A stretch of DNA of 64,000 nt from Campylobacterales bacterium. GTDB lineage: Bacteria; Campylobacterota; Campylobacteria; Campylobacterales; Sulfurospirillaceae. This document shows, piece by piece, positions 4,442 through 60,773 of this stretch. The DNA is taken from positions 49,593 through 113,592 of the forward strand of contig JAJRPV010000014.1 of NCBI GenBank assembly GCA_024280575.1. Direction: 5' to 3'. Within the stretch, counting starts at the first letter, position 1. Each line of letters begins with the position of its first letter. Under the pieces are notes generated by a model. The model made no database searches and was not told the origin of the DNA. It saw only the letters and a list, made by a program, of their open reading frames with translations. Both the position numbers and the translations under genes were made by a program.

Positions 4442-4720
4442 ATGATAAAAATAACAAATAAAGGTAAAAAATCTTGGGTAACATTTACAACTGAACCTAT
4501 AGATGTAGAATCAGTAAAGATTTGTGGGGAATGGAACGAATGGAAAAGTGAACCCATGAAAAAAAAGAAAAATGGAGAGTTTTATATAACCAAAATTATA
4601 AACTCTAACAAAAATTACCAATTTGGCTACGAACTTGGTGATGGCAGATGGATATGTGATGAAAGCGTGGAAACAGTAATGTCCCCATTTAATTCACAAA
4701 ATTCACTACTAGAGATATAA
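4442..4720 (+). CDS. Stand-alone isoamylase early-set / CBM48-like glycogen-binding protein
   Basis: VTF...VKICGEWNEW..EPMKKKKNGEF...YQFGY...W..D pattern of AMPK-beta/isoamylase N-terminal domains. Confidence 0.8.
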   Translation: MIKITNKGKKSWVTFTTEPIDVESVKICGEWNEWKSEPMKKKKNGEFYITKIINSNKNYQFGYELGDGRWICDESVETVMSPFNSQNSLLEI

Positions 4721-4721
4721 A

Positions 4722-4937
4722 TTTAGTCGCGAGGAATTTAAAGGGGCTTTGCTCCTGCAAAAGGGGACAGTAAGATAAAATTACAGAAGTTTCTACTTCG
4801 TTCTTTAGTCGCGAGGAATTTTTGCGGAATTTACTTCCGTAAAAAGGGGACAGTAAGATAAAATTACAGAGCAAAGCTCGTGCTTTAGTCGCGAGGAATT
4901 TTATTTGGGCTTTGCCCAAATAAAAGGGGGCAATTAA
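4722..4937 (+). repeat. Tandem array (3 copies, period 80-82 nt) of a two-hairpin cassette ending in the SD/ATG of the next gene
   Basis: TTTAGTCGCGAGGAATTT at 4722, 4804, 4884; AAAAGGGGACAGTAAGATAAAATTACAGA at 4759 and 4842; variable but self-complementary segments between them. Confidence 0.9.
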
Positions 4938-7436
4938 ATGAAAGCAGTAGTTATGGCAGGGGGTTTTGGTACTAGAATACAACCACTAACCCACTCTTGT
5001 CCAAAACCTATGTTACCTGTTGTAAACAGGCCAATGATGGAACACACTATGATGACTCTTAAAGACCTTGGTATCACAGAGTTCATCATTCTTTTATACT
5101 TTAAACCAGAGATTATAAAAGATTACTTCAAAGACGGAAGTGATTTTGGCATAAAAATAAGCTATGTAACTCCAGATGATGATTATGGAACAGCGGGCGC
5201 AGTTAAACTTGCACAAGAACTCATAGGAGACGATAATTTTATCATCATAAGTGGTGATTTAGTTACTGACTTTGATTTTCAAAAGCTTTTTGATTTTCAC
5301 TCTGCAAAAAAAGCAAAACTCTCTATTGGATTGACTTCTGTCGAAAATCCTTTGCAATTTGGCGTAGTTATAGCAAATGAAGACAATGTTATAGAAAAAT
5401 TCTTGGAAAAACCAAGTTGGGGTGAAGTATTTAGCGACACTATAAACACGGGTATCTACATAATAGAACCGGAAATTTTAGAATCTATTCCCAAGGGTGA
5501 AAATTTTGATTTTGCAAAAGATCTTTTTCCAAAACTTATGAAAAATGGCATAGAATTGATGGGCTACAGCATGGAAGGCTATTGGAGAGATGTTGGAAAT
5601 CCAGAGAGTTACCGCGAAGTTCATGCAGATATTTTAAATGAAAAAGTAAAATTTAAAATTCCCGGGGTCAAAACAGAATTTCCCGATGGCACATTATATA
5701 GCAGCATTCCTTACACTTTAGACAAAAGTATAGAAATTATAGGAAATGTCGTCTTGGGAAAAGATGTAATCCTAAAGAAAAATACAAAATTAAACAATAC
5801 GGTTATAGGAAATAATGTTTCAATAGGAAGCGACAGCAATATCCGAAACAGCATCCTGTGGAGTGATATAAAAATCGGTAAAAATGCAAAATTTGACGGT
5901 TGCGTTATCTGCTATGACAACGAAATAGGGAAAAATGTTACGGCAAGGGCCGGTTTGATACTGGCCCAAGGATGTGAGGTTGGTGAACTTACTACATTTG
6001 AACAAGATGTCACGATATGGCCTGATAAAAAGATAGAACCGGCATCCATAGTGAGCCATAGTTTAATCCTCGGAAGCAAATACAGAAACAACATCTTTGA
6101 AAGTGGTAGTGTTTCAGGGAAAAGCAATATAGAACTCTCTTGTGAGATGGCTACAAAACTAGCAGAAGCATTTGCATCGCAATTGCCGATAGGTGTAACA
6201 GTGGCTGTCGGAAGAGACAAAGATAAAAGCTCAAGAATGTTAAAAAGAGCCTTTTTGGGCGGTCTTTTAAGTGCTGGTATTGATGTATTGGATATGAAAA
6301 GCATTCCTCCTTCTATTCTTAGATATGTTATTGCCAAAGATGAGAAAATTGTTGGTGGCGCACACTTCAAAAGAGACATAATCGACACAACAAGTTCACA
6401 AATTACTCTTTTTAATGAAGAAGCACTTAGAATTGATTCAAACTCTATAAAAGGTGTGGAAAAGGCATTTTTTACTGAAAATTTTAGAAGAGTTGATTAT
6501 ACTAAAATAGGCGAAATCAATGAGCTTTCAAGAGAAGATGAATCCTCAAAATACATAAAAGATATTGAAAATGAGATCGACCACAGCATCATAAAATGTG
6601 GTGGATTTAAAGTCGCAGTGGATGTTATGCACGGAAGCACCGCCGATATTTTTCCGACTTTATTAAATGATCTTGGGGTTGAAAACATAGTTTTAGACGC
6701 TTATTATGATGAAAAGAAATTATCAAATATAAAAATCTTGGAAAATCGTGCCAAATCAAATATTTCAAATATAGTAAAAAGTTTAAGTTATGATTTGGGA
6801 ATTATCATTTATCCAAATGCTCAAAGACTTTTACTCGTAACTGATGAAGGAGAGGTTCTAGATAAAATAAAAGGACTCTTGAGCATACTTTATCTTCTAA
6901 ATATGGAAGAAACAGATAAAAAACTAAAAGTCTTTTTACCTACCTGGGCTCCTGATATGATTGAGTTTGAAAACTTAGATATAGAAAGAGGAAAATACTC
7001 AAATTTTAAAGCTCAGAAATTAAAAGAGTATGATCTCATAGCCACGATGGATGGAAACTTTGCTTTTACAGAGTTTGGCGTGACTCGAGATGCGATGTAT
7101 GCCAGTTTAAAAATTATGGAATTACTTAGCTGTCATGGTATAAAAATATCAAATTTGGCAAAAAAAATAGACGATTTTTACTACTCCAGCAAAAAGATAG
7201 AATGCTCTCAGGCTCTCAAGGGTAAAATGATGAGAAAATTCCTTGAGGATTCCAAAGGCAAAAAAGCTTCGACAGCCGATGGCGTAAAAATTTGGGAAAA
7301 TGAAACAGATTGGATTTTGATGATACCAGATCAATATAGTGACCATTTAAATATATATATTCAGGCAAAAGATGAATTAAGTGCCAAAAAAATATATGAT
7401 GAATACAGTGAAAAAATAGCTATTTGGTCAAGATGA
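4938..7436 (+). CDS. Sugar-phosphate nucleotidyltransferase (mannose-1-P guanylyltransferase-like) + LbH + phosphohexomutase-like fusion
   Basis: AGGFGTRIQPLT..PKPMLPV NTP-transferase motif, hexapeptide repeats, C-terminal PGM/PMM-fold region lacking canonical SHNP and DxDxD motifs. Confidence 0.85.
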   Translation: MKAVVMAGGFGTRIQPLTHSCPKPMLPVVNRPMMEHTMMTLKDLGITEFIILLYFKPEIIKDYFKDGSDFGIKISYVTPDDDYGTAGAVKLAQELIGDDNFIIISGDLVTDFDFQKLFDFHSAKKAKLSIGLTSVENPLQFGVVIANEDNVIEKFLEKPSWGEVFSDTINTGIYIIEPEILESIPKGENFDFAKDLFPKLMKNGIELMGYSMEGYWRDVGNPESYREVHADILNEKVKFKIPGVKTEFPDGTLYSSIPYTLDKSIEIIGNVVLGKDVILKKNTKLNNTVIGNNVSIGSDSNIRNSILWSDIKIGKNAKFDGCVICYDNEIGKNVTARAGLILAQGCEVGELTTFEQDVTIWPDKKIEPASIVSHSLILGSKYRNNIFESGSVSGKSNIELSCEMATKLAEAFASQLPIGVTVAVGRDKDKSSRMLKRAFLGGLLSAGIDVLDMKSIPPSILRYVIAKDEKIVGGAHFKRDIIDTTSSQITLFNEEALRIDSNSIKGVEKAFFTENFRRVDYTKIGEINELSREDESSKYIKDIENEIDHSIIKCGGFKVAVDVMHGSTADIFPTLLNDLGVENIVLDAYYDEKKLSNIKILENRAKSNISNIVKSLSYDLGIIIYPNAQRLLLVTDEGEVLDKIKGLLSILYLLNMEETDKKLKVFLPTWAPDMIEFENLDIERGKYSNFKAQKLKEYDLIATMDGNFAFTEFGVTRDAMYASLKIMELLSCHGIKISNLAKKIDDFYYSSKKIECSQALKGKMMRKFLEDSKGKKASTADGVKIWENETDWILMIPDQYSDHLNIYIQAKDELSAKKIYDEYSEKIAIWSR

Positions 7437-9457
7437 AATTAGCGACTATTTGGCACATGCATCAGCCCGACTACCGCGACAATAGTGGGGTGATGCAGAT
7501 GCCCTGGGTATTTTTACACTCCATAAAAGATTATTATGATATGCCTTGGATGATGAGCAGACATAAAGGTATCAAGGCTACTTTTAATATAACTCCTCCT
7601 TTGATAAAACAGATAAAACTCTATTTTGATGAACCTTGTAAATATGATTACTTTTTAAATCTATGGTATAAAAACGGTAGTGAACTTGATTCAAATCAAA
7701 GAGAATGGATGATAAAGATTTGCAAAAGCGCACAGTTTGACACCATGGTATCGCCACTTCCTCGTTTTGTTGATTTATATCGCAAAGAAGTTTTAAATGA
7801 TGATGAATTTTTTGATTTGGAAGTTTTGTTTATACTCTCTTGGTGTGGCGTATATTTAAAGCAAAACAGTCAAGTCGTATCGTCCCTCATAGAAAAACAA
7901 GAAAATTATGATTTTAATGATAAGACTATTTTACTAAACGAATTAAAAGAGTTTATTAAGGGTATATTTGATTATTATAAATCCTTACATGTAGAGGGTT
8001 TGATTTCGATCTCAACAACACCTCTAAACCACCCTATTCTTCCGCTGTTACTTGATATGGACAATGCACGAAAAGCAAATCCATCTACTAATATACCGCG
8101 TCTCCATGAGCCTCTGAAAGAAGATGCTAATTTGCAGATTTCAAGAGCGGTGCATTTGTTTTGTGATACTTTTGGCTTTACACCCGAGGGTTTTTGGCCA
8201 GCCGAAGGAGCTGTGGATCAAAACAGTGTAAGGCTTTTGAGGTAACATGGTATCAAATGGATAGCTACCGATGAAGCGATACTCTTCAAATCCATAGAAA
8301 ACAGTGACAGAAAAAACCTATACTACCCTTACAGTTATGATGATGTATGTATTGGTTTTAGAGATCACGGGCTTAGTGATTTGATTGGATTTACATACAG
8401 ATTTTGGGAAGCAGACAAAGCAAGTGAAAACTTTATAAATGCACTAAAAAATATAAATGATGAAAACAACAATGCAACAGTTTTTGTCATACTTGATGGC
8501 GAAAACGCTTGGGAATTTTACAAAAATAACGGCTTTGATTTTTTTAATTCGTTATACGGTAAATTAAACTTATCTCCTTGGTGCGAAACCGTAACTATGG
8601 ACGAAATTTGCCAAATGGACAAAAGGAAACTACCAAATCTTTCGCCTGGAAGTTGGATAAACGGAGAATTTAATACCTGGGTAGGTCATAGTGAAAAAAC
8701 CAAAGCTTGGGATTTGATATTTCAAACAAAAAGAGATTATAAAAAATATGGTAAAAAACTTAATGCAAGTACAAAAGAAGAGATAGTAAAGCATTTCTTG
8801 GCAGCAGAATGCTCAGACTGGTTTTGGTGGTATGGGGACGATCACTATACCGACTTTGGGGCAGAATTTGATATTCTTTTCAGAAATCACTTAATTGATA
8901 TCTATAATCTGATGCAAATTTCACCGCCAAGCACTCTCTTTAAATCTATTTTAGAGAAAAAAAGTGCCATAAATTTTCATATTCCTCCACAATCAAATAT
9001 ATCTCCTATAATAAATGGCTTGCATGACTCTTTTTTCGAGTGGATAGGATGTGGCGTAATTGACGAAACAAAAATTTTCTCAACCATGGATAAAGTAAGG
9101 GCTCCCATCCATAAAATATTTTATGGCCAAGACGAGGAATTTTTGTATTTTGCATTTATCGCAGACATTGATTCTCTCTTAGAGTCTCAAACACTAAATA
9201 TAACGATAGATCCTATCGAAGCGAGTATAAAAATACCGCTAAAATCCGGGTCAGGCAAAATTAAAAAAGATTTTAAAATAGAGTATGCATGCAAACAGTG
9301 GCTCGAAATGAAAATAGATAAAAAAAGTTTCACGCAGAGAAATTTAAATTTTCGTTTTGAGTTGATAAAACAAAAAAGGGTTATCCAAACACTCCCGGGT
9401 TTTGGGGAACTCGTTTGCAATTTAGATACAAACTACAATCATAATTGGTTTATATAA
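7433..9457 (+). pseudogene. GH57 amylopullulanase-like enzyme interrupted by in-frame TAA at 8243-8245
   Basis: WHMHQP, GFWPAEGAV, ILDGENAWE and AECSDWFWW GH57 motifs; the frame continues after the stop (LLR*HGIKWIATDEAIL) into ORF 8381. Confidence 0.85.
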
Positions 9458-18084: not shown

Positions 18085-19332
18085 ATGTTAAGTTTTGATA
18101 GAAGTTTTGATTTTCAAAACACACAAAAAGAGATAGAGAAAATGGACAGTGCTTTTGAGGCATTGAAAAAAGAGATGGACAGTGACGAGATAGGATACTA
18201 CAAACTGCCACAAAGTTCGCTTGACATAGTTGAAAAAGTTAAAGCTCTACATGTAGAGAATTTTTCGCAAATAGTGATTATAGGAATTGGTGGATCAAGC
18301 CTTGGCATAAAGGCAGTTGACCAGATACTCAGACCTTACGGTAAAAATATCAAAGAGATACTGTATCTTGAAAACTCTGACCCCGTCAGCATCAGCTTGA
18401 CTCTTAAAAAAATCAAAAAAGAAGAAGCTCTGTTTTTTGTTATATCAAAATCAGGCGGAACGATAGAGACTACTTCTATATTTAAAACTGTTATACAATA
18501 CTGCTCACTAGATTTAGATGGAGTCGATAAGAAGCGCATATTTGCTATCACTGACAGTGGTTCCAATCTCAGCGATTTTGCTAATTTTCACCAAATTGCA
18601 CAGTTCAATATACCTCTAAATGTAGGCGGAAGATTTTCAGTTCTAAGTGCGGTAGGAGTTGCTCCTTTGATGATGGCAGGATACGATATGAAAGCTCTTT
18701 TAAAAGGTGCGGGAGATTTTGTCAAAAGTTTTTTTGCCGGAGATGAAAATCATCTCTTGGAAAAAGCATGTTATTTAAGCGACAAATCAAAAACTACACC
18801 TATAAATGTACTCTTCTCTTATGCAGACAGATTGGAAAACTTCACAAAATGGTTCGTTCAACTTTGGGCAGAATCACTCGGAAAAGTGGACAATCATGGC
18901 GCACATGTAGGGCTGACTCCAGTAGGACTGATAGGCGCTGTAGATCAACACTCGTTTTTACAACTCATCATAGAAGGAACCAGAGACAAAACAGTAACGC
19001 TCATAAAAGTAGAAGATTTTGGAGATGACTTGAGAGTACCTGATATCTCACTGAAAAACATAGAAAAGACAAATTTTATAAATGGCAAGAAATTCAACAC
19101 TCTCATCAATGCACAATGTGATGCTACAATGCAGAGTTTAATAGATACTAAAGTTAGTACAGATATAATAATGCTTGATTTTGTGAGCCCGGAAAATATC
19201 GGAGCGTTGATTATGTACTATGAATTACTTACTTCAGCAGTCGGCTCTATGACAGATATAAATACCTACAATCAACCAGGAGTTGAGCTAGGCAAACAAA
19301 TCTTATATAAAAATCTACAAAAACAGGGATAA
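18085..19332 (+). CDS. pgi: Glucose-6-phosphate isomerase
   Basis: GIGGSSLG, SKSGGT.ET, GGRFSVLS, QPGVELGK. Confidence 0.95.
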   Translation: MLSFDRSFDFQNTQKEIEKMDSAFEALKKEMDSDEIGYYKLPQSSLDIVEKVKALHVENFSQIVIIGIGGSSLGIKAVDQILRPYGKNIKEILYLENSDPVSISLTLKKIKKEEALFFVISKSGGTIETTSIFKTVIQYCSLDLDGVDKKRIFAITDSGSNLSDFANFHQIAQFNIPLNVGGRFSVLSAVGVAPLMMAGYDMKALLKGAGDFVKSFFAGDENHLLEKACYLSDKSKTTPINVLFSYADRLENFTKWFVQLWAESLGKVDNHGAHVGLTPVGLIGAVDQHSFLQLIIEGTRDKTVTLIKVEDFGDDLRVPDISLKNIEKTNFINGKKFNTLINAQCDATMQSLIDTKVSTDIIMLDFVSPENIGALIMYYELLTSAVGSMTDINTYNQPGVELGKQILYKNLQKQG

Positions 19333-19334
19333 AA

Positions 19335-19415
19335 ATGGAAAATTCTATGCGAAGCATAAGCTTTAGTCGCGAGGAATTTTTTAGGAATTTACTTCCTAAA
19401 AAAGGAGACAGTTAA
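19335..19415 (+). other. 26-codon bridging ORF (MENSMRSISFSREEFFRNLLPKKGDS*) formed by a fourth copy of the two-hairpin cassette
   Basis: ATG 2 nt after the pgi stop; its TAA directly abuts the glgP ATG; contains the core TTTAGTCGCGAGGAATTT at 19362. Confidence 0.7.
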
Positions 19416-21059
19416 ATGAAACTAATCACATATGATATAAACAAAAAATATGAAAAAGCAGTAGCGTATTTTTCTATGGAATTTGCCATAGATCAGGCAC
19501 TCAAGATTTACTCAGGCGGACTTGGTTTTTTAGCCGGCTCTCACATGAGAAGCGTTTATGACCTTAAGCAAAATGTTGTGGGTATCGGACTTCTTTGGAG
19601 TTTTGGATATTATGATCAGACCAGAAACGAAGACAGAACTCTAAGACCTACTTTTACCAGAAAATTTTACTACTTTTTGGAAGAACTTGATATTGATGTC
19701 AGGGTAAGAGTTCACAATCAGGATGTAAAGATAAAAGCATTTTTGGTCAAACCTGAAGTTTTTGGCTCGGCTCCTATCATATTGCTCTCAACTGATATAG
19801 ATGAAAATGACTATTTAGCCAGAACTATAACACATAAATTATACGACGGAAACGAGAGAACAAGAGTTGCTCAAGAGATAGTTTTGGGAATTGGCGGAAC
19901 AAAAGTGCTCGAAGCATTAAATCACAAAGTTGATATTTATCATATGAATGAAGGTCATGCTCTTCCTCTGGTTTATCAACTCTATTCAAAATTTAAAGAT
20001 ATGGATGAGATTAGAAAAAGAGTAGTTTTTACCACTCACACACCAGAAGCTGCGGGAAATGAGATACACAATATACATTTTCTGCAAGAGATGGGATTTT
20101 TCAATGGCTTGGATATGCAAACCATAAGAGAGATAAGCGGCTATCAAAATGATGATAACTTCAGTCTGACGGTTGGGGCTTTAAGAAGTGCAAAGATAGC
20201 AAATGCAGTATCAAAAATACATGAAAAAGTTTCAAACGAAATGTGGTCAGGTGTAGAAGGAAGATGTGAGATAATATCTATAACCAATGCACAAAACAAG
20301 AAATACTGGACAGACAAAACTCTGATAAGAAATCTTGACGAACATGAAGATTATGAACTTGTTGCGAGAAAAAAACATCTCAAAAAATTACTTTTTGATA
20401 TCGTGGCAGATCAAACCGGAAAGATGTTTGACCCAGAAATTCTAACAATAGTCTGGGCGAGAAGATTCGCAGAATACAAAAGACCGGGTTTGCTGGCATA
20501 TGATTTGGAAAGATTTGAAAATCTTATGAAAAGAGTTAAGATTCCTGTTCAAATCATATGGGCAGGCAAGCCGTATCCAGGTGATTTTGGAGCTATTGAT
20601 CTGTTTAATGAACTCATAGATATGTCTCATCACTACCAAAATATGGCAGTTCTAATAGGATATGAACTCACTCTTTCAAAATTCCTCAAACAAGGTAGTG
20701 ATATTTGGCTTAACACACCAAGAATCACAAGAGAAGCCAGTGGAACCAGTGGGATGACTGCCAGCATGAATGGCTCTATTCACTTCTCGGTCGATGACGG
20801 TTGGCATCCTGAGTTTGCAAGAGACGGCAAAAATGCTTTTACGATTCCAGAACTAGACCACAAAATGTCAATAGAAGAGCAAGACAGACTAGACAATAAA
20901 AACATGATGGATATACTAGAAGATAAAATCATCCCAACATATTATAATAACCATAAAAAATGGGTAGAAATCATGAAAAACGCGATGACAGAAATAGATA
21001 TAGATTTCGACTCAGGAAGAATGGCAGAACAATACTATAAAAAGATGTTTAATCACTAA
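19416..21059 (+). CDS. glgP: Alpha-glucan (glycogen) phosphorylase, short type
   Basis: YFSMEF, YSGGLG.LAG, HMNEGH, WARRFAEYKR, EASGTSGM. Confidence 0.95.
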   Translation: MKLITYDINKKYEKAVAYFSMEFAIDQALKIYSGGLGFLAGSHMRSVYDLKQNVVGIGLLWSFGYYDQTRNEDRTLRPTFTRKFYYFLEELDIDVRVRVHNQDVKIKAFLVKPEVFGSAPIILLSTDIDENDYLARTITHKLYDGNERTRVAQEIVLGIGGTKVLEALNHKVDIYHMNEGHALPLVYQLYSKFKDMDEIRKRVVFTTHTPEAAGNEIHNIHFLQEMGFFNGLDMQTIREISGYQNDDNFSLTVGALRSAKIANAVSKIHEKVSNEMWSGVEGRCEIISITNAQNKKYWTDKTLIRNLDEHEDYELVARKKHLKKLLFDIVADQTGKMFDPEILTIVWARRFAEYKRPGLLAYDLERFENLMKRVKIPVQIIWAGKPYPGDFGAIDLFNELIDMSHHYQNMAVLIGYELTLSKFLKQGSDIWLNTPRITREASGTSGMTASMNGSIHFSVDDGWHPEFARDGKNAFTIPELDHKMSIEEQDRLDNKNMMDILEDKIIPTYYNNHKKWVEIMKNAMTEIDIDFDSGRMAEQYYKKMFNH

Positions 21060-53922: not shown

Positions 53923-54480
53923 ATGAAGTTTCTCTATTCTAGTAAATCACATTTTAATCTTGCTAATTTAATCACTTTTTCAAATATTGCCGCAGGGTTA
54001 ATCGCAACTTATCTCATATCTCAAAATATATTTTTATGGGCAGCCGTTTTTGCATGGATGGGCGGTGCTTTTGACATTATGGATGGGAAAGTCGCAAGAA
54101 AGTATAAACTCTCAAGTGAATTTGGCATACAGTTAGACAGTTTTGCAGATTTTTTGAGTTTTGTTTTAGTACCCGTGTTTTTTATCTTTCAAGCTATATA
54201 TGCTGTTTCATTTAGCGGTTTTGGATTGTTCATATCTGGGATTGTGAGTATCTATTATGTAATTTCTGGCCTTAGAAGATTAATTCAATTTAATATAGAT
54301 GCGGATGCGGGTGAAGTGGAAAAGTTTTTTACAGGAGTTCCGACACCATTGGGAGCCATACTTCTATGGGTATTTTATCTGGTAAATTTAGCTGGAATTT
54401 TATCACCGTCTTCCATAGTCCTGCTGATGATTGTTACGGCATGGAGTTTAAATTCTAAGATAAAAGTTCCTCATCCTTAA
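53923..54480 (+). CDS. CDP-alcohol phosphatidyltransferase (PssA-like)
   Basis: DIMDGKVARK....G.QLDSFADFLSF, FTGVPTP. Confidence 0.88.
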   Translation: MKFLYSSKSHFNLANLITFSNIAAGLIATYLISQNIFLWAAVFAWMGGAFDIMDGKVARKYKLSSEFGIQLDSFADFLSFVLVPVFFIFQAIYAVSFSGFGLFISGIVSIYYVISGLRRLIQFNIDADAGEVEKFFTGVPTPLGAILLWVFYLVNLAGILSPSSIVLLMIVTAWSLNSKIKVPHP

Positions 54481-60546: not shown

Positions 60547-60773
60547 TTTTTAAGTTTTTCGCTAAGAGAACTCAAATCTTCAAAGCTTGCACTTTTTACA
60601 GCTTTTATATTCATATCTTTAACTGCTTCTTCCAACTCTTTTCTCAAAATCAACATCTCTTTTGGAGCGTCAATTCCAATTCTCACCATACCCTTTGAAA
60701 TATCCATAACCTTTATAGTTATTTTGTCATCCAAAAGTATAGATTCCCCTACTTTTCTTGATAATACTAGCAC
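60543..60773 (-). CDS. csrA: Carbon storage regulator CsrA
   Basis: MLVLSRKVGESI, VRIGIDAPK...ILRKEL. Confidence 0.96.
   Translation of the reverse strand: MLVLSRKVGESILLDDKITIKVMDISKGMVRIGIDAPKEMLILRKELEEAVKDMNIKAVKSASFEDLSSLSEKLKK

Follow-up and report, generated by a model that had tools for sequence, protein, structure and literature searches.

Why does the same 18-mer, TTTAGTCGCGAGGAATTT, stand repeatedly in front of genes of a glycogen cluster? The window, that is, the whole 64-kb stretch of DNA analysed here, covers C15:49593-113592 of genome G000 (2.06 Mb in 86 contigs, 32.9% G+C) and contains this 18-mer at 4722, 4804, 4884, and 19362. The original prediction was that the four copies mark a two-hairpin RNA element controlling initiation or mRNA processing in the glycogen cluster, or else a REP-like dispersed repeat that supplies ribosome-binding sites. 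As had been reported, all four copies were exact; they lay on the + strand, and no further match appeared in the window when up to three mismatches were allowed. The chance expectation in the window was 0.06 as estimated by dinucleotide shuffles, and none of 100 shuffles gave four matches.

Anatomy of the unit and its copies in the window

The alignment of genome copies showed that the 18-mer is the core of a unit of ca. 82 bases (80-85 bases), which consists, from 5' to 3', of an A/T-rich left border, hairpin 1, GC plus the core, hairpin 2, and an initiation module. In the main subfamily, the core reads GC-TTYAGTCGCGAGGAATTT. Hairpin 1 has a variable stem of 4 to 5 bp closed by a conserved C-G pair and occurs in three common types, namely A (TTCTYGGCGAnAGCCRAAGC), B (ACAGAGCGnnAGCTCGTGC), and C (TTCTATGCGAAGCATAAGC). 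Hairpin 2 comprises at least 11 bp with a loop of TTTAC or TTT; its stem, predicted correctly but too short, begins with the AATTT of the core and extends as far as the A-run that precedes the SD. The initiation module is AAAGGGGACA followed, after about 7 bases, by ATG.

Three consecutive units reach from 4722 to 4940 on the + strand. Unit 1 (4722-4779; covariance model (CM) match 4694-4782, 61 bits) is 5'-truncated: its first base is the start of the 18-mer (core, 4722-4739), it abuts the TAA (4718-4720) of an upstream ORF of 92 aa, and it lacks hairpin 1, the helix-1 positions being flagged as non-pairing in the CM match. Its hairpin 2, formed by AGGGGC (4742-4747) and GCTCCT (4751-4756) with a TTT loop, is followed by the SD-like AAAGGGGACA at 4760-4769 and by ATA at 4775-4777, where other units have ATG. 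Unit 2 (4780-4860) is complete, and both of its hairpins appear in the centroid fold. Hairpin 1 pairs GAAGT (4786-4790) with ACTTC (4795-4799), the core spans 4804-4821, and hairpin 2 pairs TTTTGCGGAA (4820-4829) with TTCCGTAAAA (4835-4844) across a TTTAC loop; the SD, GGGG, lies at 4846-4849, and ATA (4858-4860) again takes the position of ATG. Unit 3 (4861-4940; CM 91 bits, E 1.5e-20), also complete, is the last of the array and folds with an MFE of -23.9 kcal/mol (z -2.75). Its hairpin 1 (GAGC 4869-4872, GCTC 4876-4879), core (4884-4901), and hairpin 2 (TTTTATTTGGGC and GCCCAAATAAAA with a TTT loop, about 4899-4925) are followed by the SD GGGGG (4926-4930) and by an ATG (4938-4940) that is the start of an 832-aa ORF, a nucleotidyltransferase-fusion gene. 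Tandem Repeats Finder reported nothing at 4600-5000, and the three units at 4722-4940 are different variants, not a recent duplication.

The solitary unit 4 (19335-19418, + strand; CM 90.9 bits) is placed between pgi (stop 19330-19332) and glgP. It contains hairpin 1 (TATGC 19346-19350, GCATA 19354-19358), the core (19362-19379), hairpin 2 (AGGAA 19383-19387 and TTCCT 19393-19397 with a TTTAC loop, extended by T/A runs), the SD GGAG (19404-19407), and the ATG at 19416, which opens a 547-aa glgP-like ORF. The arms of its hairpin 2 match the TTTTTTAGGAA-TTTAC-TTCCTAAAAAA listed earlier for this copy.

Many details of the original prediction were recovered. The variable second hairpins of all four copies agreed with the sequences listed, an A-rich GGGG or GGAG tail was found in 4/4 copies where a purine-rich SD-like tail had been described, and the TTAA-ATG of the next gene was located in copies 3 and 4, at 4934-4940 and 19412-19418. 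The description as a gene-start cassette, three times in front of one gene and once in front of another, holds for units 3 and 4, which give ATG, but not for units 1 and 2, which end in ATA. Similarly, the small upstream hairpin was present in the three copies for which it had been noted (copies 2, 3, and 4), and two hairpins per copy is correct for these but not for the truncated copy 1.

A dispersed repeat at gene junctions

Exact matches to the core 18-mer numbered 19 in the genome, rising to 54 when one mismatch was allowed and to 58 when two were; a profile (HMM) built from core copies detected 103 copies at E<1e-3, which is a lower bound as many contig ends fall inside copies. TTYAGTCGCGAGGAATTT was exact in 42 of the ca. 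103 copies and present with up to one mismatch in 57. The rest are subfamilies with other cores, so that the 18-mer, described earlier as invariant, deserves this term within the main subfamily but not beyond it. The copies are organised in 68 arrays (38 single, 25 double, and 5 triple). A same-strand ORF of at least 60 codons starts within 45 bases of the array end in 60 of the 68 arrays, and most of the remaining eight hit a contig end; wherever the downstream gene was readable, arrays and genes genome-wide had the same orientation. In SD-bearing arrays, the ATG of the last unit is the start of the long downstream ORF, and a co-directional ORF ends within about 150 bases upstream of most arrays. 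Arrays, thus, mostly occupy junctions between co-directional genes, i.e. operon junctions, and in each genome the repeat provides some sixty genes with their ribosome-binding site and start codon. Annotation of carrier genomes should take the repeat into account wherever gene starts, small ORFs, and operon junctions are called, and many contig breaks in these assemblies fall within it.

The genes behind the arrays have little to do with one another. When ten downstream proteins were scanned, nine scored above the model cut-offs, their genes being trpA, rpe, aroC, purH, argF, purE, pyrH, flgG, and clpX; the tenth was ParA-like by eye and matched a plasmid-partition RepA model alone, far below its cut-off. 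Further downstream genes, as read by eye, were fabF-like, pdxA, hemN, nadC, nfo, nuoC, lepB, and a gene for a TonB-dependent receptor. At the glgP site itself, the relatives G008, G012, G013, and G005 have no unit, the pgi stop being followed by ATG directly or within a few bases, while in G009 the site holds a unit that differs in hairpin 1, along with the remnant of a second one. A cis element tied to glycogen genes did not withstand these observations: with ca. 103 copies throughout the genome, unrelated housekeeping genes behind those checked, and an empty glgP site in four related genomes, glycogen-specific control was ruled out, by the very kind of outcome that the original prediction had named as refuting it, and a tempting false lead, a glycogen-specific RNA regulator, is removed. 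That all copies in the window lie in the glycogen cluster had seemed special; however, the genome carries one array per ca. 30 kb, so about two arrays are expected per 64 kb, two were seen, and the clustering is unremarkable. The other option offered at the outset, a REP-like dispersed repeat supplying ribosome-binding sites, fared well, given the 68 arrays whose last unit gives an SD and ATG.

The taxon range of the family was narrow. When one genome per species was scanned for the exact pattern, more than 106 loci were obtained, almost all of them from MAGs labelled Sulfurospirillum, Campylobacteraceae, or Campylobacterales; the few matches in other phyla were weak and concerned the 18-mer alone. 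Among 40 relatives, the core was present in 11 of 13 genomes of the genus of the window, with 8 to 57 matches per genome when one mismatch was allowed, and three other genera of the family had a few copies. The core pattern had no match in two complete genomes of the same genus, and among these relatives the core was not found in two further genera of the family or in 16 other families of the order; a reversed control pattern gave no matches. Judged by these sequence matches, the repeat family is confined to one family of Campylobacterota, in which the relatives carry the name Sulfurospirillum. Carriage by phages was considered and rejected: a single viral contig matched the 18-mer, without the rest of the unit.

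Within the genome, tandem neighbours were often identical, and copies at separate loci mostly differed at 6 or more of ca. 70 positions (median 29), the exceptions being a pair of subfamily-4 arrays separated by 4.5 kb and two probable duplicates at contig ends. Since there are few near-identical copies at separate loci, there is no sign of a recent burst of copies in this genome.

Hairpins, subfamilies and modules

RNAalifold applied to 48 diverse copies gave an 11-bp hairpin 2 in which 9 of the 11 pairs were changed on both sides in some copies. A two-helix covariance model detected 127 copies in the window together with 94 loci of other species. In the 125 distinct rows of this alignment, which is fitted to the structure and whose copies are related by descent, standard pairs filled 94.9% of the cells as compared to 70.2% in shuffles, and none of 500 shuffles was as high. 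Compensatory double changes were observed at 14 of the 16 pairs, and sliding the partner by 1 to 3 columns as a control lowered pairing to 49-57%. The change of sequence with pairing kept, first read from the few copies in the window, was thus seen across the 125 distinct copies, and both hairpins are real. Recombination and self-templated palindrome repair may add to the apparent structural selection. Among the paired cells, G·U outnumbered A·C by 128 to 32 (4:1), which points to structure on the sense strand. The unusually clean structural covariation together with the conserved core makes the family a good system for studying repeat movement and host co-option.

Two further structures were evaluated, and neither was accepted as a trait of the family. 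A long-range helix pairing the 5' flank AAATTTCTCG with the core CGAGGAATTT, present in the MFE fold of the glgP unit, showed 59.6% pairing over 125 copies as compared to 59.7% in shuffles. In unit 3, a 6-bp alternative stem (CTCGTG/CGCGAG) followed by GAATTTT was flagged as terminator-like (4877-4905). This stem joins the 3' arm of hairpin 1 with the CGCGAG of the core, and 44 of 47 type-B units could adopt it, as compared to few units of types A and C; no terminator-like stem was found in the glgP unit. An intrinsic terminator or attenuator was rejected as a family trait, because hairpin 2 is followed by an A-run and GGGG and the alternative stem is type-B-specific at best. In agreement with the view that the element has no named family, Rfam gave no match for the unit sequence: no match was obtained in the window at gathering thresholds, and a permissive scan matched RybB alone, which lay on the opposite strand and scored 22 bits where the gathering score is 40.

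Outside the main subfamily, the core TTTAGT-GAGAGGAATTT was accompanied by the tail AAAGGAGA, and the core TTTAGT-GCAATGAATTT by the tail AAAGAAAACA. Units with the core TTYAGTAGAGCGTGAATTG had the tail CAAGATGACAGTAAAATAAAA, without SD or ATG, and the gene's own SD came next. Subfamilies without SD or ATG still have both hairpins, which suggests that the hairpins serve something besides supplying a ribosome site. When 152 non-redundant units from the genome and loci L001-L106 were counted, all 131 units with a GGAATT core had an SD tail and all 17 with a TGAATT core had a non-SD tail, with no recombinants. This coupling of core and tail amounts to about two subfamily events and is read here as only a hint.

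Unlike the core-tail pairs, the hairpin modules mix freely between subfamilies, and some units are chimeras with crossovers in the loops, e.g. in the triple array on C47. Two modules can be distinguished, one comprising hairpin 1 and GCTTYAGT and the other the core, hairpin 2, and the SD. Half-units ending after GCTTYAGT recur before full units (L031, L072, L079, L084, L093, and C33:41799), a pattern that suggests a modular build. A single site-specific breakpoint in the core was discarded as an explanation; the 5' half-units end after GCTTYAGT, but 3'-truncated units begin at different bases.

Several unusual arrangements were also recorded. L065:6894-7079 is a tandem array with a 56-base period consisting of the left half only (hairpin 1 and core), without hairpin 2 or SD, and two core matches at G002:C45:12235-12306 are spaced 54 bases, similarly short as judged from positions alone. 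At G000:C33:41233-41360 and at G000:C27 ca. 9160-9270 (minus strand), the loop of hairpin 2 contains the same insert of ca. 34 bases, AAGGAAGCATCGCTGACGCGACCGCATTTGCTTG and a close variant of it, a repeat within a repeat. At G000:C2 ca. 54170-54290 (minus strand) and in L049, the core is followed by CTGCCCATAAA ... TTTATGGGCAGGGGGGACA, giving a much larger second hairpin with a long loop. A related element occurs in tandem with a 96-base period at G000:C82:11552-11744 (minus strand), C60:45856, and C4:117766; it consists of hairpin 1 and GCTTTAGTGACTGA..., then a GGACTTTGTTC hairpin, and may represent a further subfamily.

Docking at start codons and the origin of the family

In order to compare occupied and empty sites, 89 element-led genes from other species were queried in the genome, and a clear orthologue start was obtained for 74, of which 31 were occupied and 43 empty. 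Inserts were placed at start codons or ribosome sites. Where the flanks align, homology on the left often runs through the native ATG and 0-9 bases beyond it, as in gcgTAATGaaatc/TACAG and aagATGAaat/TACAG (the slash marks the junction). At many filled sites, the native ATG is retained to the left of the unit, often still in overlap with the upstream stop, and native codon 2 follows the SD and ATG that the unit brings. In type-A units, the left homology stops 12-29 bases upstream, which indicates that the native SD has been replaced too. The tail of the unit is in essence the consensus ribosome site of the organism, and one "empty" site (q87) reads TTTAAAGGGGACAATAAAATG. Because the unit ends resemble ordinary ribosome sites, the insertion boundary cannot be fixed to the base. 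A MITE would have terminal inverted repeats and a target-site duplication of fixed length. The ends, AAATTNC... and ...GACAGTAAAATG, are not reverse complements by eye; ATG plus a variable 0-12 bases is repeated at both ends, which is indistinguishable from homology between the tail and native ribosome sites. Occupied orthologous sites usually differ in hairpin type between species, even at 93.6% protein identity, and the number of units at the same gene varies between species (arrays have 1-3 units in the genome of the window). Turnover is fast relative to speciation.

These data bear on whether the host uses the unit as a post-transcriptional module, in which one trans-acting factor would read the core and SD and place ca. 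60 unrelated genes under one control. Candidate readers are CsrA, which would act on the two GGA motifs flanking hairpin 2, and an RNase that would cut polycistronic mRNA at the core and leave a ready-to-translate message protected by a 5' hairpin. Such a module would account for the structure kept on the sense strand, for the many genes that have a unit in several species (31/74), and for a core that is far more conserved than the stems across genera, although the other-species loci were picked by their exact core and core conservation is inflated in that set. The lack of recombinants between the GGAATT/SD-tail and TGAATT/non-SD-tail classes (131 + 17 units) also fits, but this association is essentially two subfamily events. 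A csrA gene is present in the genome and even in the window (60618-60770, - strand; PF02599, 73.6 bits), and a CsrA-type reading of the GGA motifs is conceivable from the sequence; however, good CsrA sites have GGA in hairpin loops, and those of the unit are not in loops. In addition, the genes share no common function, close relatives have empty sites, and in two complete genomes of the same genus the core pattern was not matched at all. On balance, we consider a host-used module unlikely.

The units also contain a frame that bridges the two genes. The frame GCT-TYA-GTC-GCG-AGG-AAT traversed the unit without a stop in 36 of the 47 units of the genome and in 69 of the 119 units from other species; in 25 and 46 units, respectively, an ATG in front of hairpin 1 opened it. 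The ATG-led frames have 26-28 codons, and 73 of them end at the TGA of ATGA. A second frame was open about as often, and type-A units have TAG or TAA at the left border instead of ATGAAA. In the window, a bridging ORF was found in the glgP unit only, with 26 codons from ATG 19335 to TAA 19413-19415, next to ATG 19416; the triple array at 4722-4940 has no sense bridging ORF, and unit 2 opens none because ATA replaces ATG. Since the bridging frame is missing in about half of the units, translational coupling is not universal.

It might be argued from these frames that the units are small protein genes and that the peptide of 26-28 residues is the selected product. ATG-led frames of 26-28 codons run through about half of the units and end at the next start, and length differences between units are often multiples of three or paired +1/-1 changes. 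On the other hand, the units vary by compensatory changes in the stems, and these scramble the peptide; half of the units have no start or have TAG/TAA at the border; window units 1 and 2 have ATA for ATG, with no sense ORF there; and the second frame is open about as often. A peptide-coding role is exceedingly improbable, and we ruled it out on the scrambling of the peptide by the stems and the missing starts. We take the bridging frame to be a frequent means of getting rid of a displaced start codon rather than a peptide gene or the purpose of the element.

The frame also enters a wider version of the regulatory idea, that of a portable post-transcriptional control module. In this version, the repeat would be more than tolerated DNA. 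The near-invariant core and the SD, which come and go together between subfamilies, would be read by one factor, either a CsrA-like protein on the two GGA motifs or a processing RNase, and in type-B units the terminator-like hairpin would compete with hairpin 1 under the control of ribosomes on the bridging frame. If true, dozens of unrelated operon junctions would be tuned together. We regard this version as distinctly unlikely.

Taken together, we estimate a probability of about three in four that the units are copies of a non-autonomous, MIRU-like dispersed repeat of ca. 80-85 bases that docks at start codons in Sulfurospirillum-like Campylobacterota. The repeat family is undescribed, and the kind of element is already known. 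A unit would spread by transposition or by short-homology recombination between its ribosome-site-like ends and similar native ribosome sites, and the latter route is plausible given the sequence of the tails. Insertion would be tolerated because the unit replaces what it displaces, the gene retaining an SD and ATG. The displaced native ATG would either open a throw-away frame of 26-28 codons, whose stop is the TGA of ATGA or a TAA beside the new ATG and which could hand ribosomes on to that ATG, or be replaced by TAG or TAA. As the hairpins are kept on the sense strand, a role in mRNA is indicated: they may keep SD-like and anti-SD-like strands paired and leave the real SD open at the foot of the helix, or they may block exonucleases. 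Alternatively, they may act in one particular DNA strand while the unit is mobilised.

The closest parallel is provided by MIRUs, which 'insert themselves at start codons' with -4 coupling (Supply et al. 1997 via PMC12548453). According to PMC12548453, MIRUs are, like the present units, repeats of tens of bases in gaps between co-directional genes, oriented with the genes, single or in small tandem arrays of variable number, and inserted at start codons; MIRUs have a small internal frame whose stop overlaps the gene start (ATGA, -4), so that their insertion barely disturbs expression, and the ATG-led units that end in ATGA are comparable in this respect. The present family belongs to a different phylum and has an AT-rich, probably unrelated sequence. 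It differs further in its two hairpins with strong compensatory variation, its near-invariant core, the explicit SD in each unit, the lack of a bridging frame in about half of the units, and the subfamilies that have lost SD and ATG and retained the hairpins. The likeness would, therefore, be one of functional class, and membership of the Mycobacterium MIRU sequence family is not claimed. Read in this way, the logic of MIRUs, docking at start codons and paying their way by bringing initiation signals, extends to another phylum. Synthetic bicistronic-design (BCD) cassettes, which are mentioned in PMC12548453, resemble the ATG-led units in that a short upstream frame ends on the gene start, delivers ribosomes, and makes initiation independent of context. 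BCD cassettes are engineered and the present units are natural dispersed DNA, so the analogy is functional only.

Among other repeats that the units call to mind are the BOX elements of Streptococcus pneumoniae, dispersed modular intergenic repeats (boxA-boxB-boxC) with a variable number of modules, which are predicted to fold into stable RNA structures and for which we know of no transposase of their own. The present units are similarly dispersed and modular with variable module number, but BOX elements are not docked at start codons and supply no ribosome site. REP/BIME and REPIN sequences are comparable as abundant extragenic palindromes in operon gaps in which structure prevails over sequence, whereas REPs usually follow genes and carry no SD or ATG.

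The comparison with REPs raises the possibility that the units are REP/REPIN-like or IS200/IS605-derived palindromes moved as single-stranded DNA hairpins by a RAYT-type Y1 (HUH) transposase. The two hairpins and their strand-asymmetric tolerance of G·T would be compatible with a single DNA strand as well, and many type-B units begin after TTAC, the target sequence of ISHp608. The genome has two RAYT-like genes, which exceed the cut-off of PF01797 and reach 72-74 bits with NF047646 (REP_Tyr_transpos), whose cut-off is slightly higher, at 80. However, no unit flanks either gene, and homologues occur where the core pattern has no match, namely in genera g3 and g4 and in other families; a RAYT link was rejected on this lack of adjacency and co-distribution. 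Moreover, RAYT/IS200-type transposases read specific hairpins, while the hairpin sequences of the units vary between copies, with neither a conserved palindrome sequence nor a GTAG-type head. We, thus, find RAYT-driven movement very unlikely, and the start-codon-docking repeat remains our preferred reading.

The RAYT-like genes, L128:1465-2505 (G000:C70) and L127:309-1073 (G000:C82), have long C-terminal extensions, one of which shows similarity to a sigma-70-region-4-like HTH; their homologues are widespread in the order, many with in-frame stops. Directly upstream of one of them lies a different, separate repeat of ca. 258 bp (L127:1-258, i.e. G000:C82:1-258) whose ends are inverted repeats of 25 bp, CACTGCGCAGTAACAACCCCCACAA ... 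TTGTGGGGGTTGTTACTGTGCAGTG. At least 10 copies of it with 90-100% identity are present, further ones being on C44, C18, C41, C23, C2, C4, C62, and C28 and at C15:123324-123474, and from its sequence this repeat looks like a MITE unrelated to the 82-base unit.
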